Assembly: GCA_000091205.1 (NCBI GenBank)
Contig: AP006502.2
Direction: 5' to 3' (one strand)
Origin: Cyanidioschyzon merolae
Taxonomy: Eukaryota
DNA length: 64,000 bases
Positions within the stretch are counted from its first letter, which is position 1; each line of letters starts with the position of its first letter. Both the position numbers and the translations under genes were made by a program. The notes under the pieces are model-generated. The model worked only from the letters and a program-made list of their open reading frames with translations. It was not told the DNA's origin and searched no databases. Below, in pieces: positions 1-52,108 of this stretch.

Positions 1-359
1 CACTCCTGTCAGGCAAAATTTGCACGATTCCTCTCACGTATCTGGGATATGCACACTAAAGCTTGGACCTCGCTCGTGTCGTCAAAACCAGCCTACGCAA
101 ACTTTTCTGCGACTGCCTCCTTTTCCTCTCTTATCTATACATTTAAATAGGCTGCGCTCTCCGTTCCAGGCAGCTTCGTTGCCTGCAGTCGAAGGATATC
201 AGTGGCAGGGATGAAGTCTCGATCAAGTTTTAACGGACTGTTGCGAATGCATTTCAACCACGGACGGATGTTGCGATCCATGCCTCTCTTGTCATTTCCA
301 TCTTACTTGCGGACAACTTCGGTGCGCCCTTCGCTGATCCGACACTGGGCTGAGGTCAA

Positions 360-1200
360 GTGTGCCCACATGTCTATCGCAACGCCCCCTCCGAGGTGGC
401 ACTGTGGTGCAAAAGCCCTTGCCTCATGGCACGGTGCATGCCCTTGATGGCTACAGAACGCACTCCTCGATGCCCGTCTACGTCTCCGTCTGTTGTGCCG
501 TGCCCGATGACCACGGGCTTGTTCTGAGCGATCCCATATGCGAGTAGGCTGTCCGCTGCGTGGGCAAATACACTCTGTTCCATTCGATTGAGGACTTAGG
601 AAAAGCGGTTTTGTTCATGGCGGAACAATTTCAGGAAGCAGTATCAAGACTGTAAAACGAGTCGAAAAAATTTCCTTCCGCGGACGATCCCTGCGTGCAA
701 AGCGGTAACACACGCACCACGGGAAGGGATCTATGTAAAAACTCAGGCCCTAGTCAAAGAAATGTAACATGCTAATAGAAGAGAAGAAAGGATCGACGAG
801 TGTATCCCGAATGAGATATCGTGCTGGTAGCGATCGCTATTTCGTTGATATCCAAACAAGAAAGCCAGACAAGTCTTTCGAAAGGAATCGATTATTTGAA
901 CGGAGAATTTCGGTGAAGTTCCGGCACCGACTTGTGAACAATTCGCCAAGAGACGACGTCAATTTTTTTCCCCATAAATCCGTTTCCAAGAATAGGCACG
1001 CTCGTGAGTTACCCAGAAACAGAAAGATCGACAATTTGACGCATGCGTTCTTGGAGTATGCAACACTTCAGGAAAGGATACGAGTCGTGGCTTGTACGTA
1101 CGAATTGCATAGAGATACCGTTCGGTTTCCGAGCTCTTGCTCGAGAGTGTCGCGAATCATCTCGATTTCGATATCGTTATGAACTCTAGCGGTAAAGAGT
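360..1200 (+). mobile_element. Degenerate Fanzor/TnpB-like element, copy A. It spans a RuvC-II/helper-like region, a K/E-rich linker, a decayed ZnF/RuvC-III region and a conserved tail.
   Basis: The 362-547 (+) translation AVPDDHGLVLSDPI...TLFHSIEDLG parallels copies B, C and D (HGLVMVDALDKF...TLFHSIKNQWNAML). DNA at 660-800 aligns to the c3/c4 upstream region (gaaaaatttcc...gctagtgatcgagaagaaaaag). DNA at 1020-1180 aligns to the conserved tail of c1 (gatacgagtcg...cgaattg). No intact ORF remains. Confidence 0.4.
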
Positions 1201-1535
1201 CGAGGGGGGCAACGCTGAGAAGACCTCCACCGAGCACATCCTCGATGGACGTATGCGTCCATGCACCCTTTATTGCTGTACATATACGGAAAAATATGAA
1301 AAAATCACACAGCAGCAAGATCGAACACTTCAGCGCTCCACATTCATCGGAGACGCTCCGATGGCGCCACGTGTCTGATACGCAACACGCGGCGCCCTAG
1401 GCTCCGCACGAGTCGGGCGCCCACAACCGTTCGTCCAGCGTTCGATTTGAGCGCTTTGTCGCCGCTGCATTCTGCTATTAGGACGCTACTTGTTCGACTT
1501 TTCGTTTTTGAGACTGCAACGAGCCGGGTTGTTCC

Positions 1536-6495: not shown

Positions 6496-6712
6496 TTATC
6501 CTTTAGCTTGATTGCCGCTCCAGGCTCGCAGTGTGTAGTGCAGGGATCCGACTAGCCCCAGGAGTAGCAGGAGCATCACGAGCGAGTGCGGCGTGTTGAG
6601 CCCCAGAGCAACGTCGGTGGCCAGCACGACTGTAAGTAGCAGCAACGCGGCGAGCAGTGCGACCCGCTGGACACGCGTAACGAGCGGTGCTTGTGGTGGA
6701 GCTACGTGTTGG

Positions 6713-6746
<34 letters not shown>

Positions 6747-6849
6747 CTCCTGAACCCGGAACGCGCTCTGGCTGATCCTCACTGGACTTATCCAGCTGGG
6801 CAGGAGAAATGGGGCCTGCAATCACCTCACTAGACAAGCGCAAGCGCAT
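6496..6849 (-). CDS. Small hypothetical membrane protein with a polyQ tract and two C-terminal hydrophobic helices.
   Basis: The track ORF 6496-6948 starts on TTG. The first ATG is at 6849. The (CAG)10 tract encodes QQQQQQQQQQHQH. The C-terminus LLAALLLLTVVLATDVALG...LVMLLLLLGLVGSL is hydrophobic. Confidence 0.2.
6713..6744. repeat. (GCT)n/(CAG)n trinucleotide microsatellite, about 10 units.
   Basis: ctgctgctg... run seen directly in the sequence. Confidence 0.85.
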
Positions 6850-7009
6850 GATTATCAGCGTCTCGTCGTGAATAGCTGTGGCTAGTGCATAGAGCTCTGC
6901 GCCCGTCCAGGTGTGTGCGCAAGCGCTCCTGAGCAACGCTCGTGCCAATAGACTGCTTCGCTCACTTGTGGTTGTCTAGAGCGTATGTATGCTCAGTGAA
7001 ACTAAAAAA

Positions 7010-7500
7010 GTCCCACGACCGTGTAGTGTATATATGCATCCCATTGCAGATGCCTCCCGGACTTTTTCGACCGGCCGCCCACTACTGGTTGTAACGTCAT
7101 CCCGTACAATTCGACCCTGAGCGGTTCTCCCACAAAGTCGGCTCGTATCAGCTCCGGGGGTCTCTTGTCCAGCACTGCACATCTCCCGATGTTGATAGCA
7201 GCGTTAAAGTCTCGGTTCGCGAACGCTATGCGTACCCTGCCTCTGGTTGAACTCACCATTGCAAGGATTCCTCGAACTTGTGTCCTCTGTTCTACTACAG
7301 TCTCGACCTCGTCCCGTCAGGCGAGCACCTTTTCTCGTCTACCTGTCCTCTTTTTCTTCGCCGCCGCGCGCTTTCCCTTGCTCGATGAAGGGCGAGAAGA
7401 GGATTTTTTCCTTGTTTTCGGACAGCCGGCAATGAGGCCCTCTAGGATCCGCGACTTCCATCTCTATACCTTAGCCTTTTTACATTTGTAAATGAACGCA
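7010..7500 (-). mobile_element. Fanzor/TnpB-like C-terminal remnant plus conserved tail, copy c1. This is the best-preserved RuvC-III motif.
   Basis: Minus-strand translation ...ILAMVSSTRGRVRIAFANRDFNAAINIGRCAVL carries D-x-NAA-x-NI, the RuvC-III signature of TnpB/Cas12/Fanzor. SSTRG and F.NRD align where TnpB has CxxCG zinc-ribbon motifs. Downstream 7010-7200 is about 75% identical to the tails of c2, c3 and c4. Confidence 0.5.
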
Positions 7501-8678
7501 CTTCGAGAGCATTTGCTCTAAACCACGAAAAAAGCATTAAATGATACGCACTTGGCGCCAGAGCACAGTTGAGGTGAAGTGCTATGACAAGAATCCTGCA
7601 CGTGCCAGGTCCGCAGCACGTCTAACATGCTCGTTGCTTTGCTCAGGGCAGAAGGTTGAGGCGCGAGCCTGATTAGCGTTGACGCGATCTGTGTTCCCAT
7701 GAGCGAAGCTACATTCTGGTGCATCAGGCGCAGTTGAGCGGATATCGGTGAGCTCACAAGTCGCCACAGGGTATGGTGCTGTGTGCTAGCCAGTCACCGC
7801 CCGCCACGTAGAACCCCGATAGCAGGACACGCAGGATACGATTCGGAACGACGAGCAACCGGGGATCGGTGCTGACCTTCTTCAGCGCGTCCAGAGCGGA
7901 GGCGAACCCTGTGCTCTATGTTTTTTCGTTCTCGATAATAGTTCCAAGACGCTCAATAGCTTGCGCACCCGCTTCGTGTCCAGGATCCGTGAGCGTGCTT
8001 CCACCAAGCGCCAGGTGCGGCTGTCGTTCTGGAACGCTACCAGCTGTTGCGAAGCAATCGTCAGCGTCAAGGGTGCAGGCATTTCTCGAATACGGCAGCG
8101 TGGAGTAGCTCTGAAACGCACGTTCGTACTTCAGGGTGCAAATCGCGACCTGGTAGCCGTCGATGTCCGCGATGGTGCGCAGAGAAGATACCAAACGCAC
8201 CTATCCATCCATCTTCCCAACTATGCATGTGTGCATGTGTGCGTAAAAGCAAGCAGGCGGCTATCCATGCGTCTATGTGCACAGGCAACCAGCAAGCAAG
8301 CAATCAAGCAAGTTGCTTTCTCAGGTAGAAGACGATATTGTGACCTGTGCGCCACGGTCTTGTGGCCATTCAGCAGCTACTGGTATAGGCAACGCAGCAG
8401 GTGCAGGAAATGACTGCGGACTCCAGCGAGCGCTGTATCGATATTGGGACACATGTTGTGAGAGCTGAACTGCAGTTTATTGGTGTGCGTGTCCTTCCCT
8501 GCGGGGTTTCCGTCCGTCTGGTATGGGTCTCCCCATGAGCGCGTACGCAATCAGGAAACATCGCTTCGTAACGCTCGCCGGTTCCTTTCGATGACGTTTC
8601 TGCGCTCCATGCGGAGCCTCTACATAGCCGTATCTCGTTCATGATGCTAATGCATGACTTTCCATGATCATGCATACC

Positions 8679-14563: not shown

Positions 14564-17302
14564 TTATTCAGGGGGCGGTATACTGAAAGGCACGGTCTGC
14601 ATAACATTTTGCTCATTCCGAACGATGTTAGCTACGACCATATTCGCCAACATGGCCAGCTCTGGCGGAACTGCGGCGGATAATGCCAAGCCGCTCAGAA
14701 GCCGATGGACACCAAGGCTCTGCAGGGTTGCCCGGCCAGTTGGCGTAGCGCTCAAATTACACAATGCAGCTAATGCATACTGTTGTGATTCAATATCGAC
14801 GCTCTGGGTCGCATATTGAGCAAAGTAGGTACCAGCACCCAGCTTGAGCAAGTGTGGATGCAAGTCGACGTTGTTGGTCAGTTCAGCGAGAGCCAGCAGC
14901 GCCGCTCGAGCCGTCTCTGGATCCGTTCTTCGCTGCGCAACAGCGGAAGCAAGCACAGGCAGACCGTTGGCCTGAGCGATTCGAATACTGTTCTCGATCT
15001 GTTCTGCGAAAAGAGACAGGGCACGCACGCCATATCGACGCACGCTGGGGTCCGGGTCGGTTGCCAGACGGACGGCTGCTTCGACACCGCCAGCTTGCGC
15101 TGCCATCACCCGGGACAGCCCCCCGGTAGAGACATTAAAGAGTGCTCGTGCCAACTCTCGACGCAACGAGTCGTTGTTTCCAATCACCTCTGCTTGTACC
15201 TGATTACCAGACGCCTGCGCCCAGAGTGTTGGCAGCTTCATCAAGATGCGCAAAGCACCGCGAGATCCCAGCAGATCCAACTTGGCGTTGTCTATGCGCG
15301 AGAGATTGGCTATTGTGTGTACAAGTATCTGTGCTTCATTCGTTGACAGGCTTAAGCGTCCCTGCAAAATGCCATACAACGCTTGACAAAGCCCCTGGTT
15401 TGCTAACAAGTACAACGTATCGCTGTCCTCACTGAGTTGCCCAATGAGGCGCAGGAGCGAGCGGCATGTCGGCGAAGGCACACGAGAGGTCACGCCCTCT
15501 GCATCTGGGACGCAATCCGCTAAGCGCCGCACAAGGAACGATGCATCGCGCGCTATTAGCTGAACTCGTATTCGGGCGGATTGCATCATGACGGCAAAAG
15601 CGTCCAATGCTGCTGCTCCAACCGTGGCATGCGGCGGCCGGAAGCGATCAATCCCCTCGAAGGTTTCAGCTATGCGAAGCAATTCCCGATCAGCGCCATG
15701 GAGGAGGAATGCACGGCTCAGGTGTTCGCCCGGAGCTCCCGGGACTGAACACAGCGCCGCAATTGTTTTGCATGCGGCACGCTGGGGAAGCTCCATCTGG
15801 GCTGCGTCTCGCTCTGGACCTGTGTCGTTGCGACCGCTGAGATTCTCACGGAGCACGTCGAGCAGTGTCTCTGGGATGTGACATTTCTCGAAACGATTCG
15901 CTGCTCGCATATCAATAGCGGACGTCGTGCCAGGGCTCTTCGCGAATGCTGCATCCTGCAGTATGCGGAGCGCCATGGTGCGCAGTCCCGGCTCGTCCGA
16001 TCGTGCGATGACTCGACCAAGTCGCTCCAGTGCCTCCTCGCTGGTCAGGGCGGCCAGCATGGGAGCTTGGTTCGCAAGCGAACGAAGACCAGAAAGCGCG
16101 TACTGTGCAACGCTGGAATCATCTGACTCTAGCGCAGACAAAAGTTCCCGAAGAAAGTTCCGCTTCGGGGTGGCAAAAGCTGCGAGCCTTGAGACGTTCG
16201 CTATGCACAGTATGAGCGCTCTTTCGGTCTCTCGAATTTGCGCTTGTGTTGAAATCAGCATGGTTGTGTTCTTTTGTGCCTCATGAACGCTGGCCAAAGC
16301 ACAAGCGAGCGTCTTCATGAGGCGTGTTTCATCGGCTGAGGTCGCTGTGCTCCAAATGCTTTCACTTAGTGCGAGATTGGCAAGAATCCGTGCAACCTGC
16401 TGAATCAGCGGTGCGTTCAGTTGAGACCAATCTACTGGCTTCCGCTGGCGCCCGAAAAGGAACAAAAAGCCGCTAGTCATTCCGCCACACTGCGCAGCGA
16501 CACCTGCATCCCGGTTGAGGCAATGCAGGAGACTCCGCAACAGCGGTGTATCTCTGAGCTGCGAGTGGGTTTGTTTGTTCCGCACTATTTCCCCCAGAAT
16601 CTCCAGCAACGTCGTGCGCAAGTCAACGTCTATGTCCGGACGTTCCAACGTCTGGGCAAGGACTCCCCCGACTCCACAAGAGGCGAGTTCCACGGCAGTG
16701 CCCTGCTGCACAGCATACTGGAGGATTTCGTTCGCAGCCTCTTTAGCCGCCGCAAGTTCGGAACTTTTCACCACATCCATGAGCTCCCTGATACGTTTCG
16801 TGCAAGTTTCATCTGTTCGTGGGGAGCTCGTACCTGTGGACGCTGCACCACCGGGCCCGGTGTTCACGCCCGCGATCGTGATCGACTCTGAACTCGCGAC
16901 GCCGAGGTTCGCGCTCAGACCTGTCGGAAAGCCATAGAGTGCCACAAACGTGCAAGTTCCTACACTCAGCGCAAACTGCAACAAGCGCTTCGCGGTACCG
17001 TGCAAGCCACCAACAGCTGGACTCTGCGTGAGCGGGCGTGACTGCCACGGGAAAGCAGCACCTTGCCTAGGCCCTAGTCGCGCCGTCGTTTCCGTCCTAA
17101 ACCCTAGCGCTTGCTGCGAACTCTTTCCCAGCAACTTCTGCAGCGGACGCGCGATAGGCAACCGCTGCACAGACTGAAGCCTCCATAAAGTGAGCATGAT
17201 CGCGGGACCATGCAAGCGCAGCCCCAGTTCGCAGCAGAAGCTGCAGCGATGAATAGCGTATGGGAATTGGCTCCGCTTCCGCGCGGAGCAGGGCGTGTGC
17301 AT
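14564..17302 (-). CDS. Armadillo/HEAT-repeat protein, 912 aa.
   Basis: ATG confirmed (cat at 17300-17302). About 40-residue helical repeats rich in L/A with GN...AL.NL motifs recur (LANLALS, IANLSRI, LCNLSAT), as in ARM repeats. Confidence 0.55.
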   Translation of the reverse strand: MHTPCSARKRSQFPYAIHRCSFCCELGLRLHGPAIMLTLWRLQSVQRLPIARPLQKLLGKSSQQALGFRTETTARLGPRQGAAFPWQSRPLTQSPAVGGLHGTAKRLLQFALSVGTCTFVALYGFPTGLSANLGVASSESITIAGVNTGPGGAASTGTSSPRTDETCTKRIRELMDVVKSSELAAAKEAANEILQYAVQQGTAVELASCGVGGVLAQTLERPDIDVDLRTTLLEILGEIVRNKQTHSQLRDTPLLRSLLHCLNRDAGVAAQCGGMTSGFLFLFGRQRKPVDWSQLNAPLIQQVARILANLALSESIWSTATSADETRLMKTLACALASVHEAQKNTTMLISTQAQIRETERALILCIANVSRLAAFATPKRNFLRELLSALESDDSSVAQYALSGLRSLANQAPMLAALTSEEALERLGRVIARSDEPGLRTMALRILQDAAFAKSPGTTSAIDMRAANRFEKCHIPETLLDVLRENLSGRNDTGPERDAAQMELPQRAACKTIAALCSVPGAPGEHLSRAFLLHGADRELLRIAETFEGIDRFRPPHATVGAAALDAFAVMMQSARIRVQLIARDASFLVRRLADCVPDAEGVTSRVPSPTCRSLLRLIGQLSEDSDTLYLLANQGLCQALYGILQGRLSLSTNEAQILVHTIANLSRIDNAKLDLLGSRGALRILMKLPTLWAQASGNQVQAEVIGNNDSLRRELARALFNVSTGGLSRVMAAQAGGVEAAVRLATDPDPSVRRYGVRALSLFAEQIENSIRIAQANGLPVLASAVAQRRTDPETARAALLALAELTNNVDLHPHLLKLGAGTYFAQYATQSVDIESQQYALAALCNLSATPTGRATLQSLGVHRLLSGLALSAAVPPELAMLANMVVANIVRNEQNVMQTVPFSIPPPE

Positions 17303-17399: not shown

Positions 17400-17900
17400 A
17401 ATAAACAAAAAATGTCCTGGGACCATATAGGATAAATTAATACTCATATGTAGACACCTCTCCGCCCTTTTCGACTCGCAGACTGTTACGCATTCAGTTT
17501 TGTCCAGACAACCTTCGAGCCTGAGAGGATACCCCGCGAAGTTGGATCGCGTCAGCTCCGCGGGTCCCGTCCTCAGCACCAATGATCGCCTGATGTTTAT
17601 GGCAGCATTAAAGTACCGGTTCATGAACTTCGTGTGGGCTCTGGCGCTGGTTGCGCTCATCAATGCAAGAATTGCGGGAACTCTCGTACTCTCTGTACCA
17701 TTTGATACTCGGTCAGCTCTCTGTGCGTTTCGATCGCAAAAGCGCTTCGCGGGCACTTCTCCAGGTCGACCTTCTGAAGTGGAGACCCCAGCTCACCCTT
17801 TTGTTTATTTTAAAACGAGCGAACTTGTTTGTTCGTTTTGGTGAGGACGTTCCCGGAAGCGGGAAAGACTTGCGGATGCAAGACCGGATGTATTCTGGTA
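17400..17900 (-). mobile_element. Fanzor/TnpB-like remnant, copy c2.
   Basis: Minus-strand ORF 17397-17756: ...ILALMSATSARAHTKFMNRYFNAAINIRRSLVLRTGPAELTRSNFAGYPLRLEG. Coding and tail are both alignable to c1 (VLDKRPPELIRADFVGEPLRVE). Confidence 0.45.
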
Positions 17901-18949
17901 TCACTGTGCGCTGAACGCTTAAGCGATTCTACCAATGGAGCGCTCAATAGGCTTAATTAAAGAAAAGCGTCCTTCGATGCGGTTGAACCACGGAACATAC
18001 GGAGGAATGCAAAGCAGTTCTACTCCGATAGAATCGGCAACAGCTCCAACGCAAGGGGAATAGAGAAATGCAACGTTGTCCAATAGAAAAGCGTCGCCAG
18101 ACGTCAGGGGAAAGTCTTCAATGGCTCGACGTAATGGGCGCTGTTGTATGAGTCTTCTCTACGAGCGAAACTGAGGCCGTAAAATGAATTCACCCCAGCT
18201 AGAACAGAAGATGGTGTCGTCATTCTCCGCGAGTTCAACCGTACATTCAGCAGGCGCCCAGATCTGCGAGTACCCATATACGCTCCGACCGTTTCATCCA
18301 AGGCAAGTCTCATCGAATGAAAGAACAGACCGACTTCACTCTGCCTCAGATCGATAGCGACGTTCCTGGAAACTGTCGTTGCGATTTCGATGGAGGACGG
18401 TCGTTCATGGCATTGGACATTTTCGCGACTGTATCCCAGTGTTTTTAGGACCATACGAACTAGCTATTGAGAAACAGATACGCCGTTGGCGGCTACCACT
18501 GTCGCTTTTGCTTTCCGTAAGGTGATCAACTGGTCGTTTGCTGCCATTTAACGCAGTCAGTCTTTAAGAATATCGGACATTGTCGCAGAGCGCATATTCA
18601 GGGTTCTTTCAGTGTTCCTTAGGTATCTGAGTTCTTTTACGTGGATGACCTGATGGAGGAATGCAGTCCTCCTTACACACGTCAGTAAAGAATATATATA
18701 TCCTGCAGGAAATTTTTCTACGATCTATAGAGTACATTGCATATTGACACTGATCTCCTGGTCGTCACCGCGAAAAAACATTCAATGACAAGCAGCAGTG
18801 CTGGAACACAGTGAGTTGAGGACGATCAACGGAATGCTTGCTCGTATAATCTTTCATCTCAAGTGTTTTGCCCCTCTGCTGCGCGTCATCAAATGCTTTT
18901 TCGTGCTTTCTAGCAGACGCGTATGAACTGCGTTTGTTCTCAAAAACAA

Positions 18950-19420
18950 AACATATAAGGAAAAAATTATGGACATAGAATTCGGGGATCCTGGAGGATC
19001 GCCATCCCCGAGTTCCAGAGAGAAACTGAAAAATTTCCCTCTCGCCAACCATCGAGCGAAGAAGAGCTAGTGATCGAGAAGAAAAAGAAAATGAAATGCG
19101 GAGATAGGCGAAAAATCGTGTTTAGCTCACGGGACGGTGACGGGATTGTAGTGGCGCGGAGGGCACAAGTTCGCAGAAGCCTTGTAATGTTGAGTTCGAC
19201 TAAAGCGAATAATCGTGTAGAGTTCATGAACCGAGGACTTAACGCTTCCATCAATATCAGACGATGTGTAGCGCTGAAGGAATTAGCCTACGTACTTCGT
19301 GGGGGAGCCTCTCAGGCTCGAAGTGAACAAGAGAAACTGAAATCGATAGCGGGGAGTTCGTCAAAAAAGGCCGGAAGCGCCTGCTAGTTGATGTGTATAT
19401 GCACTCTGTGGTCGCGAAAC
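18950..19420 (+). mobile_element. Fanzor/TnpB-like remnant, copy c3.
   Basis: ORF 19070-19387 (+): IEKKKKMKCGDRRK...LVMLSSTKANNRVEFMNRGLNASINIRRCVALKE. Tail 19290-19420 aligns to the c1 tail (cttcgtggggagcctctcaggctcgaagtg...gtcaaaaaaggccgg...tatatgcact). Confidence 0.5.
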
Positions 19421-19499
19421 CGATTTCGTATCATCGTCCATACACGTAACTCGAATGTACTACAAAGTTTAGGTCTTTCCCGTTTTAGCCAGGGCAAGC

Positions 19500-19700
19500 A
19501 TTTGCGGATATTTTTTCCGCGACTACTTCCTTTCCCTCTCTCTGATCTCCGACTTTAAAATGCGTAGGTCTCTCTTTCCCCTCAGCTCTGCTGTTGCGAA
19601 TCGAAGGAGGTTGATGGCATCGTTCAAGTTCGGACGACACAACACTATGCTGTATCCAATGCATTTAATTTACAGGTAAAATTTGCACTCAACGCACCGC
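19500..19700 (-). mobile_element. Short Fanzor-remnant fragment (tail plus RuvC-III-edge), copy c6, tail-to-tail with c3.
   Basis: Plus-strand 19540-19660 (ccgactttaaaatgcgtaggtctctctttcccc...aaggaggttgatggcatcgttcaagttcgg) aligns to c5 (ccgacctcaaatacgcggctctcttctctccc...aaaggatgttgacggcagcgctcaagtccc) and to c1. Confidence 0.35.
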
Positions 19701-19889
19701 TTCCCGGTTCCATCTTCTCGATTGGATGCAGCATCGGTGCGCCCATTGCGGTGGTGATACTAGGCTTTGGTCTGGTCTTCCCGTATGTCCATCCGAATGC
19801 TTCCACTTCCTCATGCTGTGCTGTAGCTCGTAGAAAATTGCTCGACCGCTCGGGACATGTCCTTGAGCGGTAGAGAGGCTCGCCTCAAT

Positions 19890-20750
19890 GCCCTCCTCCG
19901 TTCTCGTATCCGGTGCTGTACTCTGTGATCACGCCCTTATGCTAAGCGATCCCCGCGTCGAGCGCCCTCTCCGCTGCACATGCAAGGACACGCGGTTTCA
20001 TTCGAAAAAGAACTTGTGGAACATGGAATTCCCCATGACGTCAAAAGTAGTCGAACGACAATTCCTACTGGAGACCGACACAAAAAATAAGATATTTCGA
20101 CGCTGTATTTGTGAAAAGCGGCAGCGCTCTCTCCAATGGAAGCCATCCCTGCGATAACGAAAGCCCGAGTTCAAGACCGTTTCCTAAGCGAACGTAATAA
20201 ACTGGAGCATCTCGGAGCAAATAGCGTGAGAGGTAATGCTGCCGTTGAGTTGCATTTATTTTTCGGCCACAAAGGGTGAAGGATTGGCTCATCGAACGGC
20301 ATCGATTATTAGACGTGAGAATTTTTGTGAAATCTACGCACGAGCATGTGAGCAAGTCATCAGGAGGCAACGTCGAGTTTCTTTCCTCGCCCAACGAGAG
20401 GCGCGAATGGCGCACCCTCGAATCGCCTTCAACCAGCATGATTGAAAACCTGAACCATAAGTGATTTGAGTATGTGACTCGTATGGAAAGAAGAAGGGAG
20501 GAGGCTTTTACGAGTGTACTGGACAATTATATCTCTTGTTTACGAAGCATGTTCGATGGCATCGCGTCTCCTATTGAAATCGATGACGTAACGAAGTCCA
20601 GTGGCACAGCGTCAAATGCGCCACTCCAAAGAGCGCGACCTAGAATCCTGAAATTCGTTATGAATCCATGCGCCTTTACTTCAGAACTTTGGATCTCGAG
20701 GCTGTACTTGTAAGAAAGTTCAAGAAAATATTCAAGGCAGGAACAGAACG
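19890..20750 (+). mobile_element. Degenerate Fanzor/TnpB-like element, copy D (RuvC-II/helper-like region through to the tail).
   Basis: 19888-20157 (+): SGAVLCDHALMLSDP...TRFHSKKNLWNMEFPM parallels HGLVLSDP...TLFHSIKNQWNAMLSM of copies A and C. NVEFLSS at about 20370 resembles the RVEFMNRG zinc-ribbon remnant. Tail 20580-20720 is about 80% identical to 25690-25830 (the tail of copy B). Confidence 0.4.
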
Positions 20751-21626
20751 AAGAGTTCAATGTTGCAGGTTCATCTGACATAGGGTAGATGCCGTGGGGC
20801 CCACTCAGTCTCACTGAATAACTTGCAGGCTCGGTTTCGCCACAGCAGATCCTGCACGAAACATTCATATTGGTGAGCTTGCACAAATGGCATTTGGATG
20901 CATTCGGAAAACACGGACCGCTAGCATTGATCCAATGCACACAGTTCCCGTTCCTGGACGCTGGACGGCCGTTCATGTCGGCGGTCGACCAGCTCCACAG
21001 CGTGCAGCTTGCGCATCTGCCTGCGCATCAAGGATGAATGGCGAATCCGAAACAGTGTCGATGCGTTTCCGGATGCCGTTGACGTGCCCCATGAAGCATG
21101 CCGGGCAATCGCATTCGAAGTATAGCCATCGCGAACGCGCTTCTATGGGGTCATCAGGCATCGGGCCGCATTTGTGATCCAACACTTGGTCGTCGTCGAT
21201 CATTCTTGGACCTCTCTGCCCCAAATCCGGTATCCCTATGTGCCTTGTACCCTTCTTCGTTGCATCTAGAGAAGATCACCAGCAAAGACACCTCTGGAGT
21301 GCTTGCGCTCAACAGCGGCATTGATGCCGCCAACGGGGCTTCCCGCGTTTAATGATTCCGCGACACCTGCGCTGCGGCAGGACCAAGGTCAGTAGCAGTT
21401 TTGGGTTTCGTGCGCCGCCCACAGAGGGTACTTCCACGCACGCGCTCTGTGGGTGACTTTTCCAGCCAGTGCAGCTGCTCAGGCTTTCGCGCCAAGCGCG
21501 TATCTGCCTGTAGTGGAGCGTACTCTCGGGGGTGAAACCTGGTCCGGCGCAGGCGCTTTTGCGTCCTGGAAAGAACGCCCACGTGCGTAGCAGCACGCCC
21601 TCTGCCGGGCTGCTTCCAAAGCTCCA

Positions 21627-24559: not shown

Positions 24560-24830
24560 GTATGAACTAAAGTTCAGGTCTCTTCCAAGTGTGATTGACA
24601 GCAGCCTTTTTGAGCTCTCTCTACGACGGCTTCCTCATCCCTTCGCCGTCTCCTTTCCGACCTCAAATACGCGGCTCTCTTCTCTCCCTGCACCTCTGCC
24701 CTTAGTAATCAAAGGATGTTGACGGCAGCGCTCAAGTCCCGATTTCGCCGCTTCCGGCTGTTGCCTGCGCATTGCAGGAATAGGTACAATTTGGAATCTA
24801 CGCATGACTTGCTATTTTCATCGTTCTTGT
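24560..24830 (-). mobile_element. Fanzor-remnant fragment, copy c5 (internally deleted), head-to-head with copy B.
   Basis: Plus-strand aaggatgttgacggcagcgctcaagtcccgatttcgc...cattgcaggaatagg aligns to c1 cccgatgttgatagcagcgttaaagtctcggttcgc...cattgcaaggattcc. The upstream tail is conserved with c1 and c6. Confidence 0.4.
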
Positions 24831-24989
24831 ATGTATTGTCGGTGCTCCTTTGGTAGCAGCGCTATTTTTGGTCGTAGACAGGTCATCCAGCATATCCATC
24901 ACACTTACTACTGCGAAAGTCGCCTTGTGGATCGTGAACACAATCCTCATCGCTCGGTTCATGCCCTTGACCGGTACAGAGAGCTCACT

Positions 24990-25830
24990 TTGATGGCCTC
25001 ATTCGTTTTTACATCCAGTGTGGTACTCTATGGTGACGGGCGTGTTGTGAGCCATTCCTTCGGCAAGTACTCAGTTGGCTGCACGTGCAAAGCACATGTT
25101 ATTCCATCCGATTGAGGATTCGTGGAATGCAATGCTGTCCACAATGAAACAAGTGCGGAAAGGAAAATATACCCTTGAGAAGAAGTCGAGAAATCTCGAT
25201 CCATCTCTGCAGCCTTCATACAAAGAGGTGATGCACGCTCCACTGGAAGCGATCACCGCGGGGATTGCATTGCGAATCAAAACCACTACTTTCGTACCAA
25301 GGAAAGAGACGAGAGCATCTGTGATCATATCTCGTGAGAGATACAATTCTGCTATCGAATGGCTTTTCGTGAATTACCGCAACGAGAGGAGTGCTTGTCT
25401 TTAGACCTGCGTTGAGTTTGTTGACCGGAGAAGATCCATGATCTCTAGGCATGGGCTTGTGAAGAACTCATCAAGAGACGACACTGAGGTTCGCTCCTCG
25501 TCAACCAATGGCGCGAATCGCTGCGCCCAGATGTGACAGTGAAACGGAAAGATCGAAAAATGGACGAGTTCGGGATTGGAGCACCCCACACACGTACGGA
25601 AAGGACGTGCGTTGGGTCTTGCACGCACGAATTGGATAATCATATCGGTTATTTTACGTACCCTGGTTTGATTGCGTCGCGAATCATCCCGTTGCCAGTG
25701 GAGTAACGAATTCCAGCGGCACAGCGACGCAGGAACCACTAAGAAACGCCGGCCGAGAATCCTAAAATTACGTATGGATCCGAATTCTCGAATTGCTACG
25801 TTTCGAAGATCTTGGCTGTATACTTAAAAT
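24990..25830 (+). mobile_element. Degenerate Fanzor/TnpB-like element, copy B.
   Basis: 25075-25404 (+): LFHPIEDSWNAMLSTMKQV...LEKKSRN...ERYNSAIEWLF (RuvC-III remnant, compare RGFNAAINI). Tail 25480-25700 aligns to the c1 tail (cagatgtgacagtg; gcacgcacgaattgg). Extreme tail 25690-25830 matches 20580-20720. Confidence 0.45.
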
Positions 25831-26689
25831 CTCTGGAACAATCGAAAAGCATGAACAGAGCGAAGAGTCGAGTGTTTCATATCAATCTGACCGGGATATA
25901 GTTTTTAGCGCTAGTTTTAGGCCATTGTGGTTTCTTCAGCTTGCCGTGCATCGGCAGACATCACCTCTGCTCATTATCTCATTGATTGCTTACGCTTTAG
26001 CTCATAAGAATTACAAGCCCAAGCACATACCTACCCCGTCGAGTCGATGTTTGATGAAAGTGTTTCGCATACACGAGAGATGCTGCGAGATAAATGCGCA
26101 GGCGGGCGCTCTTTCGAAAGCCCTCGGGAAACGAGTGTTCCCTCACAGCCCACAAGTATCTCCTTGAATCCTCGTCTGACAGCATTATGCTTCCGAAATC
26201 GTCGACGCCTTCCAATATCTCCGGGTATTTGAGTCGATTTTCAGCACAGAGGTGTACCGCGAAATTGCTTCTCGCAACGTGACGTCTCGTATGCAATTCG
26301 TGGAAAAGCAGGGACGGTCTTCACCCCTGGCCTTGACGATCATCTACTCACGCTGTCAATCCAGCTCTGTTTCAAACTCGAGTTATGTCCCAAAATATGC
26401 AAACCCTACTCTGTTCGGTCGTCGCCTCCGTGCCCACATAGTTAGCGACGCTTCCGCATCGCTTGGGCATGCGGCTCCGCGGGAACGCGATCGATTTGAT
26501 TGGATCGCGCGCTGGCCCCATGGCCTGGGGTGCTCCCTGGGAATAAAACGATGCTGTATGCAGACTCGGAACCTCGATCGCAGACGGATAAAGTGACAAA
26601 TGCCCGCGTAGGATCAACACGTTAGTACGTTCTTTAACATCCCGTAGCGCGTTTCGTTGCTCGGTTTTTTATTCTTGACTCGCGTGAGC

Positions 26690-35829: not shown

Positions 35830-36973
35830 ATCATCAGAATTTTTCATATCCGTATCGTGTGCTTGGGCGAGTTGCAATACTCAAGTGTGGCAGCCAACAC
35901 GAACAGGAAATCGCTCTCCGGTACCGAATGGTCTCATGAGCTGCATCGTATTGTCTGTTGATGAGTTGATTGCATTGTCGTGCAGGGAACCTCAGGAGCG
36001 GCTATGGTGATCGGGAATCCCGTTTCAGGCTGGCACCGCTGGACCGAACAAGAATGCACCGTAATCCCTGGATACACAGAGGCGCACTGAACCCATCCAT
36101 GTGAAGCAGGCATGGTGTGAGGCTCCTTCGCAATAAATGGACGCCGCTTGCACCTTGTATGAGGTGCGAATTGTTTGTAGACAATTCGTCGGGAACGTGC
36201 TGATATTCAAGATATCGATGCTGGTGGGTAATTCCGGCAGCAGTGCGCAACTGCGCGCCGAGTCCTTCGAGTGTACTTGCATCCAGTATGGCTTCGCCGC
36301 ATGCCGGCCTCTAAGCCGTGCGAGCAGGGCTTACTCCTTTGCTTTTATCTGTGACAGCCAACACGAGAAGCATACTCGAGTTAGCGCCAACCGATCGTAC
36401 GGGTTCTGAATGTAACCGAGGCACCCAGCAGGCGTGTCGGAACTCTTGTGGATGCATATGCTGGACCGGCGTTCCAGAGCGAACGATTCGAGAAATGGGG
36501 CACTGTTTCGGACTTGTGGGCGCGAGGTCAAGGGCGGCGTAGGTGCGTTCGCAAACGCCGAAGTTGCACGATGCCCCGTTATCGAGGTTTTGTCGATACG
36601 ATTGGGGAGTAAACTCCTGGGTCGATTTTAGCATTCGGTGGCGTCTAGAACGTTCGTTTGGCCCGGATATCGATATGCACGAACTCTCCTGAACGAATGG
36701 CCGGGTCATGTTTAGACACACTCAGTAATATCGAATAATGCAACACCATTCTCGATTGGCAGTCGCCCAGGGATACCATTCCGACTACATAAATACGATG
36801 TTGCAGACTTGTTGTATTCCTGACCATACCATACTACTGAATTGCTCCAGGCGAGAATCAGATGCCGCCTCTCTAATGTCCTTGAATTCGTTTATCAAAG
36901 GTCGTCAGCGATTCAGGGCAATGCCCACGGCCTGTACGCAACGATCCGCTCCGGGGTCCGTTCGATGCAGAGC

Positions 36974-38137
36974 TCATGCGCGTTTCGCTAGCAGAGGCCA
37001 TCTCCGAACGTTGTTCGACAGACGCTCATATCTCGATCCATAAAGGGCCGTCACACGCTTCGACAGGTAAACGCACACAACTGCATGCCGCTCGCTCTCG
37101 TTGCTCGCTGCATCGGACGTTATCTCAGCGTACCGTGCAACATCTCGAGCGTCCGGCTCTGTTTCACGCTCTTCTCCTCTACCGGCATCAGCGCGCAACC
37201 GTGCTCTTGATTTCTGCATATTGTCCTGCATCCATCGATAAGCATCGGAAAGAATCGATTCCTTCGCTCGTTGCACGCTCTCGTAGATGCAGCAGGAATG
37301 CAGCCCGAGCGCGTTCCAGCGCCTCGAGCGGCAGTGCGCTGCCACCGAACAGCACGACGCATCATGCACTATCGGGTTGATGTTCATGTTCATGTTCATG
37401 TTCATGTTCATGTTCATGTTCAAGTCCATGTCCTTGATCAAGTCCTTGAGCGTGTCCACGTCCATGTCCATTTCATGGAAACCGTTGGCCAGTCTGCGCT
37501 TCTTGCCTCCGTGCAGCCGGAGCATCGGCGAGTCCGGTGCGGCTCCATCTAGTGCCTCCATAGATTGTCTGCATGAGCCATTTGGACGCTCATGTGCTCC
37601 GTGAATGCGGCGTTCAGAGAATACCTCAGACCGCTGGATTCGGCGCTCAGAGCGTCAACATGGGTCACGACGCTGTCCTTGCACTCGCTGGTAGACCGCT
37701 GGGCGCCCGCCATGTCGGGCTCCCGTTCATGCCCTTCCCTGCACAAGCTGCGCAGTTGCATTTGCTCGCCCTGAGGATCTCCGGATACATCCCCTCGATG
37801 TAGAGATACTGCATCTGAGATGACGGTTTCCAGCTGCGGATCCGGGTCCGCCGCAATGTTCGTCTCGTCGTCTACCCTGACAGGTTGAAAAAGCTGCTCG
37901 TCGGCTGACGCTGGCCTCGGTTTCATGGAGTCTGTGTTTGTGTGTGTGTGTGTGCGTATGTGTGCAGACGGACAGTCCGTCGGTGCATCGTCCCTGTGCA
38001 TTTCGTCTTGTTTCCTTCGTGTGACAGAGAAACCTTGAACGAGCCTCTGCTCTGCTCTGCTCTGCTCTGCTTGAGGCTGCTCGAGCGATACGTCGCTGCT
38101 CGAAGAGATACCAGACCCTCTTCGCTATCCGCTTCAC
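36974..38137 (-). pseudogene. Hypothetical gene inside duplication copy 1, frameshifted relative to copy 2 by a (TG)n length difference.
   Basis: ORFs 36974-37561, 37549-38001 and 37727-38137 (-) together cover the same protein as copy 2 ORFs 49604-50167 and 50155-50745. The HTHTHTH tract sits at the frame break. Confidence 0.25.
37376..37422. repeat. (ATGTTC)n hexanucleotide microsatellite, about 7 units. Its partner at about 50006-50029 has 4 units.
   Basis: Seen directly. It encodes a (MN)n/(HV)n low-complexity tract in overlapping ORFs. Confidence 0.9.
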
Positions 38138-39339
38138 TGGGATGCCCGGTCATGGTCTGGTTGCTATGCTCTACGTCTGTTTTCCTCCTTGAGAAGCACA
38201 CGGACTGGATGGGCACTGTTACTAAGACTCGCCTTCTCTGTGTATGTATCGGCGCTCTCTCGGACACGTTTTCGTTACCTTCTTGAACGCGAGCGTGTCC
38301 ACGCACTGAAACGTGCCCCTGCGCTCCCTCCTGTGCAAGAGACGCGGCCCAACACGGTAGTTCAGGGCTGGTGGAGGTATCGCAAGCGTCGTCGAAAAAC
38401 TCGAGTGTTACGGACGTGACTGACGCACCACTAGATCCGTGAGCGTCAGAGCGGCTTTTGCCAACAGAAAAGACGCTTTCGACTGGAATGGACCAACGGA
38501 GAGTAGACTGGCAGGAAGCGCAGCTCTACGCAGTCTCAGCTGCATACTCGGTGACTGCTTCTTGTTGTGACGGGAACCGACGTTTTCTAGCAGCAGGACA
38601 GAAGAGCTTGGGAACGAGGTTCCGTGAGCACTTCTTAGAAGATTGAGGTTTTTGAAGGATCCGGGCTGTTCAGCGATCTCGGGGCGACCAGACGTGTTAC
38701 CCGCCGCTAGCTAGGACTGTTGTTGCCGTCGCGCTCGCTTGTCTTGGCTGAACGAACTGCGAATCGCCCCTCTTTAACTACCCGTGCGCAAGTCTACGCG
38801 TTCTCACGAACAAAGTCGCATCGAGTGAGACATGCAGCAGTCTGTCCCACGGTAAGCGATCCCTGAACAATACAAAAGCAAAGCTGAGCTGAGCTGAGCT
38901 GTCCGACACAGGATACGTTCCGGTGGCATCGCGCTTTCTCCCGCGTCCATTGGTGGCCCTTCACCGCTCTTCGTATCATGGGTACGGAAGTTTCAGAAAC
39001 TGTGGCTTTGCCAGTAGAGCTTCATAGCGAACGCTTGGAGACGAATGGAATGACGAGACGACGGTCGTGGAGATCGAGGTCCATAGGTTGCACGTCGGGT
39101 GCACCATGTCCAGACCGAGGACTAGGCAGCGAATGGCCCGTGCATCTGCCCACCGAAGAATGCCTGAATACTACACCTAAGATCCTCTGTCGCATGCTAC
39201 CAGAGACATCATAAAGTCGTCCCGCAACGCTCTTCCAACATGCTGGATACAGTCCATTAGTTGAGTGCCTGCGAGAAAAACAGAGGACGACGATGAAAAC
39301 GGCGTGCTGGTACAGGAGCTCCAGAATGCACTGCTCTGT

Positions 39340-43329: not shown

Positions 43330-45099
43330 CCACCACGTCCTGTGACGACTCAGTATAAAACCTGTGCCCAACCCTGCGCGTAAAACTCAATGAAAACAAA
43401 GCGCGTGATACCTGGAAGCGCAAGGCGGATCGCAGAACAGAAATCTCTGTTCATTGTAGGAGAAATAGGCATTCGATCGATCCGAGTATGGACGCGTGGC
43501 CTGGGGAGCAAACAGCGCCGGCTGGTGGCGCCTCGAGGGCCGGTGGCGGCACGTGCCGCTTCCGCGCACAGGGCGGCGCTTTTGTTGTGGCCCGGACCTA
43601 GCGGGGAAGCCGACGGAGATGGTTCATATTTGTCTATTAATGAATAAGAATATGAAGCGGCAGCAGGGCAATCGAGGTCTCCGCGCTCTTGCGCGTACCC
43701 CGCTGGACAGGAAAATGCGTACGCGCGCGCGGCTCGCATCCGATGATCGACACCTGTGATCGATACACATGCGATACTGAACTGCTCGTGCTATCCCTGC
43801 GTTGTGACTTGTCGCAAATTGCAGCGTTAAACGGACAACCTAGAGATCAAAAGTGCATGCATAGGAGATTACGGGTGCATATATAGGTATACGATTTTTG
43901 ATCGATTTTGTTCGGAGTGGGTTCTTCGAAGCTTTTGCGCCTGGGATTCGTTACGTTCCCAGAAACAAGATGACTGGGGGCGGCGCCCACAAATAATGAT
44001 TGGGAAAATAACCAATGTCGCGATGCAGCGTATGCGTCCAAGTCTCCGCTATTCTTCTATCGTTACATGTATCATGTTCAAATCACGTATTCTTCGTGGT
44101 TTCGATCGCACTGTTCTGAAGCGAGTCGTGCACGCAGTAATGCACGTCGCCGGATTGGCCACGAAACCAGAGCTCAACGTCGACTCTCGAAGGCGTTTTT
44201 CACATCGAATCATTTGTCTCGTTCGAAACACAAATCCGCCTCTGTTTCGAGGCATCGACCAATCGGCATTCGCCTGGAGCATAATACCTGTCACGGGATA
44301 TGCTCGCAAGGGCCCCTGTCTCTTCTCTTTGCATTCAAAAAAGGGTACTGGACACGAGCTCCAGTTATCGCAACGATCACTTCCCGTGGACCATAAGCGG
44401 ATGGAAAACTCTCGATCTCTCCTCTAACCTGGATTCCGCTTCCGAAACGTGTTCCATCATGACCAAGATCGCGTTTCATAAATCCCGTCTCGAATGGAAC
44501 ACTGCGCGCTTGCGCTCGCGGAGGATACCCTATTTACTGCGTGAATCGCACAGAAAAAACATGTGATCATGCGATACGACGATGTGTGCGAAAATGCAGG
44601 ACGGTACCGAAAGAAGCCTTCCGTAGTGTCCAGGTACATGCGGCAATCGATGAAGCAAGCGTTCAAGCTGCACTAGCCGCCGATAAAAGAGAGGGCACTT
44701 GTTGCGATGGACATCTGGGACGCCTGACCGCTGCCAAGTGTCACTGCTGCGAGGGACGAACCGAGGTCGCGTTCGAAGAACGTGCGTAGATCACAACTTT
44801 TGCCGGTGCATGAATCGCGTGAACAACACCCAGAAGCAGCGAAATCGGCGACTTGGACGCTACGATCAATACCCCTTGACCGGCATTAACAGAGCTGAAC
44901 AGACAGGAGAGATCGACGTAATCTGAGCCTGAGACCATACGGAGGTAAGGCAGGCAGTCGGAGACGAATCCCTCAAAGACTTTTGTTCATGACTGTGGGA
45001 AGCATCCCAAACTTGAGAATGTACGCTCGAGTTAGACCAGTGGACCTGCACCTTTCGATTCTGATATCGCGAGATGCTCGGTCGAGCAAAGAAGCAGAC

Positions 45100-51979: not shown

Positions 51980-52108
51980 TGTTTATAGGCTCTCGATAGA
52001 TGCCAAGTACTGGTGTGGGGCGAGCACGCTTGTACCGCCAATTACCACGTCAATCTGCAGATGTGTAGCGAGTCCTCGTATCAGCTCCACTTCAAGAGCG
52101 GTGACTCC
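51980..52108 (-). pseudogene. Duplicated 3' fragment (last about 43 codons) of the SM-fusion gene.
   Basis: ORF 51983-52231 (-) ends ...GGVTALEVELIRGLATHLQIDVVIGGTSVLAPHQYLASIESL. This is identical to the SM C-terminus except for two substitutions, and it diverges upstream. Confidence 0.6.

Follow-up and report, generated by a model that had tools for sequence, protein, structure and literature searches.

Results

Four repeats in the window are dead copies of the transposon CMe-1A

Four dispersed repeats, c1 to c4, are very probably dead copies of CMe-1A, a transposon family of Cyanidioschyzon merolae that encodes the Fanzor1 protein (Bao and Jurka, 2013, Mob DNA 4:12; Repbase; PMC3627910). 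They lie in a 64-kb stretch of DNA, which was analyzed as a whole and is referred to as the window, on chromosome 20 of C. merolae 10D; proteins encoded there are identical to BAM83290.1, BAM83293.1, and BAM83302.1. CMe-1A is the same family as the 3.2-kb interspersed element with 253 copies and an ORF resembling WSSV WSV486 that was reported in the C. merolae genome papers (Matsuzaki 2004; Nozaki 2007; PMC1955436). The four copies are:

c1, 7045..7585, minus strand: CMe-1-type internal-deletion derivative
c2, 17442..17795, minus strand: CMe-1-type 3' fragment only (CMe-1A nt 2738-3092)
c3, 18844..19475, plus strand: CMe-1-type deletion derivative (CMe-1A nt 785-969 and 2809-3084, plus tail)
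c4, 45050..45577, minus strand: CMe-1-type deletion derivative (CMe-1A nt 2842-3083)

The initial annotation had singled out one peptide in each of them, namely ANRDFNAAINIGRC (c1, 7205, minus strand), MNRYFNAAINIRRS (c2, 17609, minus strand), MNRGLNASINIRRC (c3, 19241, plus strand), and TRGFNAAINIRRC (c4, 45300, minus strand). All four are present where it placed them, and a six-frame scan of the window gave no further match to N[AS][AS]xN[IVL]. The copies are true DNA repeats with pairwise identities of 65-72% over 200-400 bp (E 1e-21 to 1e-45). We compared them with the CMe-1A consensus from the supplement of PMC3627910, which comprises 3169 bp with a 734-aa protein. The copies are colinear with both the consensus DNA and the protein, at a DNA identity of 62-79%, slightly below the value of about 80% reported for the family versus its consensus. 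In tblastn searches with CMe-1p, c1 was matched with 60% identity over 96 aa (E 3e-30), and c2, c3, and c4 were matched with E-values of 8e-16, 1e-8, and 8e-13, respectively. An HMM built from nine members of the CMe-1 family recognized c1 (E 4e-20), c2 (5e-12), c3 (2.7e-9), and c4 (6e-13). Every copy contains stops and frameshifts, and all, the longer repeats described below included, are intergenic in a eukaryotic, intron-poor locus. The match to CMe-1A at the DNA, protein, and HMM levels thus bears out the original reading of these sequences as pseudogenized remnants of Fanzor, the eukaryotic TnpB homologue, in nuclear intergenic DNA. Kinetoplastid retroposon relics of the SIDER type (about 500 bp, about 70% identity) were also considered; they are ruled out by the C. 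merolae host and by the match to CMe-1A.

An internal deletion is shared by c1 and c3

Full-length CMe-1A is about 3.2 kb long and contains an ORF of about 734 aa, whereas c1, c3, and c4 span only 0.5-0.6 kb, in which nt ~785-1070 are joined to nt ~2830-3085. The first ~785 nt of CMe-1A, including the TE-N2_CMe-like 635 bp, are missing from these three copies, and the last 84 nt of CMe-1A are replaced in them by a 3' tail of their own of about 85 nt. The fourth copy, c2, is a 3' fragment of about 350 bp without a 5' module (68.3% identity to CMe-1A over 360 nt, E 1e-45, blastn), so that it is likewise a derivative and not a full member of the family; its tail extends to ~17380, about 80 bp upstream of a host ORF (17302..14564).

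In c1, the 5' module at 7585-7405 corresponds to CMe-1A nt 787-969 (70.7% identity over 184 nt, blastn) and extends to the junction at ~7300, and the 3' module at 7292-7045 corresponds to nt 2835-3085 (78.5% over 251 nt, E 1e-55, blastn). A subfamily-specific tail follows and reaches ~6965, and an 85-aa ORF at 7002-7259 includes NRDFNAAINI. The boundaries of c3 are the same as those of c1: the two copies begin at CMe-1A nt 787 (c1) and nt 785 (c3), and the sequence between about nt 1070 and about nt 2827-2835 is missing from both, with the microhomology GTG-(A/G)AA at the deletion junction. In c1 the junction, reading ...DEVETVVEQRTQVRGILAMV, is in frame. Demonstrably, therefore, the same internal deletion, in frame and about 1.75 kb long, is present in c1 and c3. 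The 5' module of c4 was identified via its alignment to c1 and c3 (70.7% identity to c3 over 403 nt), and on this alignment c4 apparently carries the same deletion.

Because c1 and c3, and apparently c4, share one deletion, they descend from a single deletion derivative and did not decay independently. The earlier statement that every copy had lost catalytic residues or was frameshifted holds insofar as the copies are dead; in c1 and c3 (and apparently c4), however, the loss was inherited with one deletion and did not occur copy by copy. RuvC-I and RuvC-II are absent from all four, either by deletion (c1, c3, c4) or by truncation (c2), and none of them can therefore make a nuclease. Many environmental strains keep c1 at the orthologous locus. 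Among 11 variants of the c1 ORF from metagenomes, 3 were frameshifted and RD was changed to RE in 2.

In having several dispersed copies with one breakpoint and retained ends, the c repeats resemble non-autonomous, MITE-like derivatives of DNA transposons that arise by internal deletion. In contrast to these, CMe-1, like the c copies, has no evident terminal inverted repeats, and mobilization of the c derivative in trans would have to be assumed. Bao and Jurka drew an analogy with HAL1/L1 for non-autonomous derivatives; the main text of their paper makes no mention of the deletion subfamily represented by c1, c3, and c4 (PMC3627910).

The CMe-1 lineage has Fanzor1 motifs and lacks a C4 zinc ribbon

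The FxNAAINI motif of the c copies is the RuvC-III motif of the Fanzor lineage. Fanzor1 belongs to the eukaryotic homologues of TnpB; it is a RuvC DNA endonuclease guided by omega RNA and is borne by transposons. In the intact relatives of CMe-1, the segments D(PG), DEFRT(S), and NRDFNAAINI are conserved, the first of them in the form GADPG (alignment A3). The published signature of the superfamily is D-x(125,275)-[TS][TS]-x-x-[C4 zinc finger]-x(5,50)-RD (Bao and Jurka; PMC3627910). In intact members of the CMe-1 lineage the C4 zinc finger is missing from the stretch between TS and RD, even in relatives with as little as 31% identity (alignment A3), and in the c copies of the window the RD segment alone remains. 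Because the intact relatives also lack the four cysteines, the absence of the zinc ribbon is ancestral to the CMe-1 lineage, and the cysteines, which the initial annotation had described as decayed, were not lost by decay in c1 to c4. Nor is CAGHGACPTGQCRDC in c4 a remnant of a zinc ribbon: it is an out-of-frame reading of the basic N-terminal region of the CMe-1 ORF (aa ~40-55).

With SpuFz1 (8GKH) and GtFz1 (9CER), the CMe-1 lineage shares the RuvC-III motif RDxNAAxNI, and its intact relatives have D(PG), DEFRT, and RD at the expected spacing. However, the identity to these proteins is just 12-13%, the lineage lacks the C4 zinc ribbon, and the copies in the window in addition lack RuvC-I and RuvC-II. 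The CMe-1 lineage escapes sequence profiles: the c peptides and the c consensus had no Pfam match, CMe-1p reached the gathering score of neither PF07282 (11 bits, E 0.51) nor PF01385, and CMe-1p yielded nothing at threshold against NCBIfam or the PDB sequences. By sequence alone, membership of CMe-1 in the superfamily is thus given by short motifs and by the published PSI-BLAST-type analysis. A Foldseek search with a structure model of the intact relative P0083 returned GtFz (9CER) and SpuFz (9CEU, 9CEZ, 9CEY, 8GKH) as the top five matches (probability 1.00, E 6e-8 to 1e-6); the match after these had an E-value of 0.46. At significant E-values, solved Fanzor1 structures alone were thus matched, and the fold of P0083 may resemble them. 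As confidence in the model is low, with a mean pLDDT of 53 (below 50 in the RuvC part; TM ~0.2), this result is suggestive only.

A second repeat family, L, probably has TnpB/Fanzor ancestry

The window contains a second repeat family of 1.3 kb, named L, with five copies:

L copy A, 69..1300, minus strand: tblastn with the L consensus, E 1e-33 to 1e-38 (A of the initial annotation)
L copy D, 19475..20785, minus strand: three colinear tblastn HSPs, E 9e-55 (formerly c6 and D)
L copy B, 24628..25891, minus strand: tblastn E 2e-47 (formerly c5 and B)
L copy E, 43880..45002, plus strand: tblastn E 5e-39 (not annotated before)
L copy C, 58617..59573, minus strand: tblastn E 4e-49 (formerly C)

Copies A to D had been described before, and they are genuine repeats with a mean column identity of 66% (alignment A2). 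Their assignment to a RuvC-II and helper region, however, was made on the wrong strand. What had been read on the plus strand of A to D, HGLVMVDALDKF and TLFHSIKNQWNAMLSMVDQV, is antisense to the probable reading frame: of the frames of the L consensus, the two best on the minus strand of A to D contain only 4-5 stops, those on the plus strand 11-14. It contains a stop-free run of 318-336 aa with the TnpB motif at its end. Copy A retains a TnpB/Fanzor-like ORF in decayed form on the minus strand, and its C-terminal motif LDRDFIPATDILRL lies near 150-340; copy B has NRDLSAAVNIL at 24744-24715, and copy C has RYRDFSAAMNTLQL at its left end, with the ORF on the minus strand; the ORF of copy E is on the plus strand. 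For A and C, the extents given previously were incomplete, as the C-terminal motif is also found at the left ends (69-340 and 58617-58901, minus strand).

The C-terminus of the consensus reads TSAQCHRCEG...CPCMKC...RNRDLNAAINILRL when five copies are used and TTAKCHGCEG...CLCMKC...RNRDFNAAINILRL when eight are used. The pattern [TS][TS]-x-x-CxxC...CxxC-x(5,50)-RD-x-NAA-x-NI is found in the L consensus only, all single copies being degraded. L is older than the CMe-1-type family. Encoded in its consensus are the last ~336 aa of a TnpB/Fanzor-like protein, including a canonical zinc ribbon. Among the Pfam and NCBIfam models, it matched those of bacterial TnpB best, in both cases below the curated cut-offs: PF07282 (Cas12f1-like TNB) at 25.2 bits with E 1.9e-5 and at 20.8 bits with E 4e-4 (cut-off 26.3), and guided_TnpB (NF040570) with a weak E-value of 0.016. 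Thus, in the Pfam comparison proposed earlier, the c peptides remained unmatched and the L consensus came close to the cut-off without reaching it. With bacterial TnpB of IS200/IS605 and IS607 elements, the L consensus shares the canonical C-terminus TSxxCxxC...CxxC...RDxNAAxNIL. In contrast to those elements, which have prokaryotic hosts, L resides on a eukaryotic chromosome; a Pfam scan of the ten longest ORFs found no TnpA-type domain, no subterminal hairpins were noticed in passing, and every L copy is a pseudogene of which only the C-terminal half of the ORF is left. The eight-copy consensus also contains mere candidates for RuvC-I (WIDEEKN) and RuvC-II (VMDIREHLTT), neither of which any profile supported.

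Could the CxxC...CxxC...RDxNAAxNIL arrangement be a chance or convergent feature of a family unrelated to Fanzor and TnpB? The profile scores are indeed all below threshold, the CMe-1 HMM gives no match on the L copies, and neither the L consensus nor the L alignment matched any PDB sequence (phmmer, hmmsearch). A word-indexed search of 5.8 billion proteins contained no intact L-type protein, its sole match, P0001, being a decayed ORF, and in metagenomes a single L consensus found nine loci, which represent three further decayed copies, none of them intact. However, the longest stop-free frame ends with the full published signature in both the five-copy and the eight-copy consensus, and the best Pfam and NCBIfam matches are both of the TnpB type, with colinear model positions. 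Moreover, hhalign aligned L with the CMe-1 family colinearly from GYG to RDxNAAxNI (probability 76.6%, E 2.2e-5), and four of the five copies in the window each keep parts of RDxNAAxNI. We therefore regard a chance resemblance as quite unlikely, and, judged from these sub-threshold scores, a TnpB/Fanzor ancestry of L is probable but not proven.

Duplicated relics and the number of lineages

Two further relics are the arms of a direct duplication:

M1, 36720..39468, minus strand: arm of a 2.8-kb direct duplication with a decayed CMe-1-like Fanzor1 ORF
M2, 49350..52111, minus strand: second arm of the duplication with the same Fanzor1 relic

The arms are 96.9% identical over 2786 nt. In M1, the HMM matched 37923-37525 and 37332-37027 (E 1e-11 and 3e-11). 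The relic segments of M2 are at 50592-50131 and 49962-49657, and its full relic sequence matched the CMe-1 family HMM with an E-value of 1e-26. The motifs of M2 are degraded, with ADPDPQ for GADPGN, IDGCRT for VDEFRT, and FMDRDM for FVNRDFNAAINI.

Altogether, the window contains at least three lineages, namely CMe-1 deletion derivatives, family L, and the 2.8-kb relics, and not the single family of ten copies that had been proposed. That count treated c5 and B, and likewise c6 and D, as separate copies although each pair is one, and it overlooked copy E (~43880-45002) as well as the relics at 36720-39468 and 49350-52111.

CMe-1-type elements abut copies of L

At two sites, c3/D and c4/E, a CMe-1-type mini-element abuts the ORF-downstream end of an L copy in a tail-to-tail arrangement, with L copy D adjoining the 3' end of c3 and L copy E that of c4. 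For the L copies A, B, and C, the upstream sequence contained no c-type tail above shuffled controls.

Discussion

We propose the following history. Intact CMe-1 elements encode a Fanzor1 protein of about 734 aa. In c1 and c3, and apparently in c4, one deletion joins codon ~55 to codon ~642 of the CMe-1 consensus. What these copies keep of the 5' region amounts to about 290 nt, with the 5' UTR and the basic N-terminus; from the 3' end of the ORF they keep about 250 nt with the RuvC-III motif, followed by their own ~85-nt tail. The single non-autonomous derivative from which they descend multiplied, presumably mobilized in trans, and its copies later drifted to 65-79% identity. The c1 to c4, L, and M copies are molecular fossils without demonstrated present function.

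A bacterial origin of the repeats, as fragments of IS200/IS605 or IS607 TnpB that entered by contamination or recent horizontal transfer, might be suggested by the presence of RDxNAAxNI in bacterial TnpB as well and by the bacterial model behind the weak NCBIfam match. However, the copies sit among genes for Sec1, RabGAP-TBC, and DOHH on a finished C. merolae chromosome, and a eukaryotic transposon consensus is matched over hundreds of bases. In addition, the structural neighbors of the intact relative are Fanzor1 proteins, not TnpB or Cas12f, and the intact protein, which begins with a basic, NLS-like segment and has a long N-terminal extension, comprises about 700 aa versus about 400 aa for TnpB. 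The initial annotation had rightly preferred a Fanzor-like over a bacterial IS605 assignment. We consider a bacterial origin to be practically ruled out. Another reading would give the c mini-elements a function: keeping the transposon 3' end, they might supply a guide RNA or regulatory sequence as non-autonomous omega-RNA carriers, comparable to the miniature elements derived from bacterial IS200/IS605, or adjacent host genes might have taken them over to serve as promoters or 5' UTRs. The deletion leaves exactly the parts that a mobilizable derivative needs (the 5' region and the ORF 3' end with the tail), and in solved Fanzor complexes the protein is bound to omega RNA (title of 8GKH). Yet the four 3' modules of the c copies have neither a stable consensus structure nor covariation support (RNAalifold, -22.5 kcal/mol with a covariation term of +1.5; 2 of 45 pairs compensatory), no Rfam family was matched in the window, the mutual identity of the copies is just 65-72%, and the strain variants of c1 include frameshifts and loss of the catalytic Asp. 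Co-option is suggested by the short distance, about 30-80 bp, between the 3' ends of c1 and c2 and the same-strand host ORFs downstream of them, and, like the carrier function, by the retention of c1 in many environmental strains. However, in a compact genome insertions survive in intergenic DNA only, which is enough to explain the proximity to genes. A function of either kind seems very unlikely, and we prefer the reading of the c copies as dead remnants.

The abutments of c3 with D and of c4 with E, which apparently arose independently, allow a more speculative combination. The published inventory lists one Fanzor family for C. merolae (PMC3627910). L could be a second, older Fanzor lineage of the Cyanidiales with a C4 zinc ribbon, outside this inventory, and both abutments could record a shared, sequence-specified insertion site; that all of this is correct we consider unlikely.

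Fanzor1 elements have been known in C. merolae since 2013 (PMC3627910), and the repeat itself since 2004/2007 (PMC1955436). As a discovery, the finding has little weight, the Fanzor family having been described previously. The case shows that a relic of the Fanzor RuvC-III motif can be recognized correctly from a reading of the letters only, and it corrects the anatomy of these elements with respect to the shared deletion derivative, the strand of A to D, the number of copies, and the ancestral loss of the zinc ribbon. The probable second Fanzor-like family, L, and the tail-to-tail junctions between c and L copies provide small leads on the insertion of Fanzor-bearing elements. If the combination set out above were true, these junctions would be a natural trace of the target specificity of Fanzor elements in a eukaryote.

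Four Fanzor Relics of the CMe-1A Family

The initial annotation had drawn attention to four short peptides with an FxNAAINI core (the RuvC-III motif), in elements referred to here as c1 to c4. A six-frame scan of the 64 kb with the pattern N[AS][AS]xN[IVL] yielded exactly four matches, and these are the same four peptides, at the places and on the strands proposed; c1 contains an 85-aa ORF at 7002-7259 on the minus strand (MVSSTRGRVRIAFANRDFNAAINIGRC...). The motifs are not isolated because, in a self-blastn comparison, c1 to c4 are DNA repeats, with pairwise identities of 65-72% across 200-400 bp (E 1e-21 to 1e-45).

One Fanzor1 family, CMe-1A, has been described in C. merolae (Bao and Jurka, 2013; PMC3627910). 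Its 3169 bp consensus encodes a 734-aa Fanzor1 protein, and about 150 copies exist, each ~80% identical to the consensus; there are no TIRs, the TSDs are undetermined, and the first 635 bp are another repeat, TE-N2_CMe (PMC3627910). The 3.2-kb interspersed element reported in 253 copies, with a truncated ORF like WSV486 of white spot syndrome virus (WSSV) (Nozaki et al., 2007; PMC1955436), is very probably CMe-1A, because Bao and Jurka list a Fanzor in the WSSV genome (PMC3627910). The CMe-1A consensus, taken from the supplement of PMC3627910, was compared with the window.

Repeat coordinates (self-blastn) of c1 to c4 and their matches to the CMe-1A consensus (nt, identity)
c1, 7030-7550: nt 787-969, 70.7%; nt 2835-3085, 78.5% (E 1e-55)
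c2, 17478-17683: nt 2738-3092, 68.3%
c3, 18880-19350: nt 785-969, 69.3%; nt 2809-3084, 62.7%
c4, 45123-45577: nt 2842-3083, 68.0%; 5' part placed by alignment with c1 and c3

All four also matched the CMe-1 protein (E 3e-30, 8e-16, 1e-8 and 8e-13 for c1 to c4, respectively) and a family HMM built from nine members recovered from metagenomes (E 4e-20 to 3e-9). Thus, c1 to c4 are real, already known Fanzor relics that belong to the published CMe-1A family as deletion derivatives. All 43 protein matches to the CMe-1 consensus came from metagenome assemblies (JGI, ENA or Logan) and none from the NCBI C. merolae 10D proteome; therefore, the CMe-1 ORFs appear to lack gene annotation in the 10D reference.

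A Shared Internal Deletion

The c consensus starts with DMEVADPGGPxSPA..., the CMe-1 N-terminus (MEKEVEDPGGPVSPA...), and continues to ...DEVETVV, equivalent to DEMVVKA at aa ~50-56 of CMe-1. Directly thereafter follows ...QRTQVRGILAMVSS, which corresponds to ERRAKVRGLLALVST, from aa ~642 onward. The two parts join within a GTG-(A/G)AA microhomology, and in c1 the reading frame is kept across the join. As judged from the alignments, an internal deletion of about 1.75 kb is common to c1, c3 and c4, which also share a 5' boundary at CMe-1A nt ~785 (seen directly in c1 and c3) and a 3' divergence point at nt ~3085, followed by a tail of their own of about 85 nt. Because junction and boundaries are held in common, these three descend from one deletion derivative and are not full-length genes that eroded independently; c2 is a 3' fragment.

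Fanzor Assignment and Zinc Ribbon

The search of CMe-1p, the CMe-1 protein, against Pfam PF07282 gave only E 0.51, and no match was obtained against PDB sequences. A structure model of P0083, a 702-aa relative (42% identical), was poor (21-sequence alignment, mean pLDDT 53). Nevertheless, its only significant Foldseek matches in the PDB (E 6e-8 to 1e-6) were Fanzor structures, from Guillardia theta (9CER) and Spizellomyces punctatus (9CEU, 9CEZ, 9CEY, 8GKH), the next match having E 0.46. CMe-1 relatives retain the triad D(PG), DEFRT and RDxNAAxNI, and both results agree with the published assignment. Together with the CMe-1A matches of c1 to c4, they bear out the original call of Fanzor-like remnants.

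The cysteines had been considered decayed. Intact relatives (P0083-P0086, 31-43% identity) likewise have none between DEFRTS and NRDFNAAINI, and therefore the zinc-ribbon loss, as far as these proteins indicate, is ancestral to the CMe-1 lineage. The CAGHGACPTGQCRDC ascribed to c4 turned out to be an out-of-frame reading of the N-terminal basic region, which in the correct frame reads KQKTRKSGDVRDTVLARQDNVETVVALMGHE, matching CMe-1 KQKREARRQRLQERRQYDEMVVKACLLGH.

The metagenome protein P0044, with all three motifs, is encoded by a near-full-length copy (locus L013) that is 85-88% identical to consensus nt 648-3168. In this near-intact copy, a ~72-nt internal tandem duplication (L013 3725-3871, Ga0504780_000149; CMe-1A nt 2117-2188 repeated) lengthens the acidic KHEE.K.A.P.TQ.VQDND repeat, an array that is even longer in P0053.

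A Second Family and a Duplicated Relic

The longer elements A, B, C and D, together with a fifth copy, E, form a repeat family of ~1.2-1.3 kb, termed L (mean column identity 66%). A consensus built from the five window copies contains 11-14 stops in every plus frame. On the opposite strand, its two best frames contain only 4-5, with a stop-free run of 318 aa, which grew to 336 aa after three further metagenome copies were added. Hence, the plus-strand peptides initially read in A to D are antisense. Elements c5 and c6, listed as separate copies, are the C-terminal ORF ends of B and D. The 336-aa run ends ...NKPVIIGYGTGYENAGGHR.EPSVPVKGMHRAM...VMDIREHLTTAKCHGCEGRTD...GKRCVDRNFCLCMKCVGNSPKQRNRDFNAAINILRL, and this C-terminus has the signature [TS][TS]xx-C4-x(5,50)-RD of Bao and Jurka (PMC3627910). 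L scored 25.2 bits (E 1.9e-5) and 20.8 bits against PF07282 (cut-off 26.3), its top NCBIfam match was NF040570 guided_TnpB (E 0.016), and hhalign aligned it colinearly with the CMe-1 family (probability 76.6%, E 2.2e-5); PDB sequences gave no match, and a protein search found no intact L-type protein. These consistent, sub-threshold similarities indicate that L is probably of TnpB/Fanzor ancestry. Because all copies stop at a common point upstream within the ORF, L is a 1.3-kb unit confined to the gene's C-terminal half. It probably represents a second Fanzor-like family, older than CMe-1; it was not found in the searchable literature and may exist in Repbase.

A direct 2.8-kb duplication (arms 36720-39468 and 49350-52111, 96.9% identical) carries in each arm a decayed CMe-1-like Fanzor1 ORF on the minus strand (CMe-1 HMM, full-sequence E 1e-26) with the degraded motifs ADPDPQ, IDGCRT and FMDRDM. 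The arms have stops in common, so the duplication is later than the decay. The initial copy list was right for c1 to c4 and lacked these relics and copy E. The relics contain the microsatellites GTTCAT x9 (37376-37475, a T*T*T* run in translation) and AGCTG x11 (51490-51544), and the first arm, at its right end, overlaps the final ~130 nt of the Sec1-family ORF 39340..43371.

Genomic Context and Junctions

The long ORFs of the window are eukaryotic and without introns (Sec1, RabGAP-TBC, ARM repeat protein, deoxyhypusine hydroxylase, MFS transporter); exact look-up identified BAM83290.1, BAM83293.1 and BAM83302.1 of C. merolae 10D, chromosome 20. The 3' ends of c1 (6948-7045) and c2 (17302-17442) lie ~30-80 bp upstream of same-strand host ORFs, 6948..6496 (150 aa, poly-Q run) and 17302..14564 (ARM-repeat protein), respectively. 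A tandem repeat at 45781-46007 (27-bp unit, 8.4 copies, 99% identity; GCGTCTGTCACGAGAAGCGGCCTGTGC) lies ~200 bp past the c4 5' end, and a 60-bp intergenic unit is perfectly duplicated in tandem at 11525-11644.

At c3/D (19384-19513) and c4/E (45002-45140), the c-type 3' tail abuts the ORF-downstream L end, tail-to-tail. As D and E are not a pair of nearest relatives, these junctions look like independent events that may reflect a preferred insertion site; no c tail was found beside A, B or C. Unlike the window arrangement, two metagenome contigs of a relative (L008 469-1944, L010 2434-3908) show a chimeric arrangement, with a c-type 5' module, from the start codon region to the deletion junction, ~30 bp from the ORF-upstream L end in the same orientation. 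This chimeric arrangement suggests that c-type and L elements exchange modules.

Decay and a Possible History of the Elements

Stops or frameshifts occur in every copy, in line with the view that all are pseudogenised. Among 11 variants of the c1 ORF from hot-spring metagenome strains, frameshifts affect three, and two carry RE in place of RD. RNAalifold detected no covariation in the four c 3' modules, and Rfam gave no match across the window. Nothing suggests present activity of the window copies.

Intact CMe-1 elements would encode an omega-RNA-guided RuvC endonuclease, as established for SpuFz1 and GtFz1 and as we infer for CMe-1. The common breakpoints of the c-type elements suggest that these are non-autonomous deletion derivatives that would have spread with help in trans. 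As their decay shows, all copies in the window are now neutral fossils.
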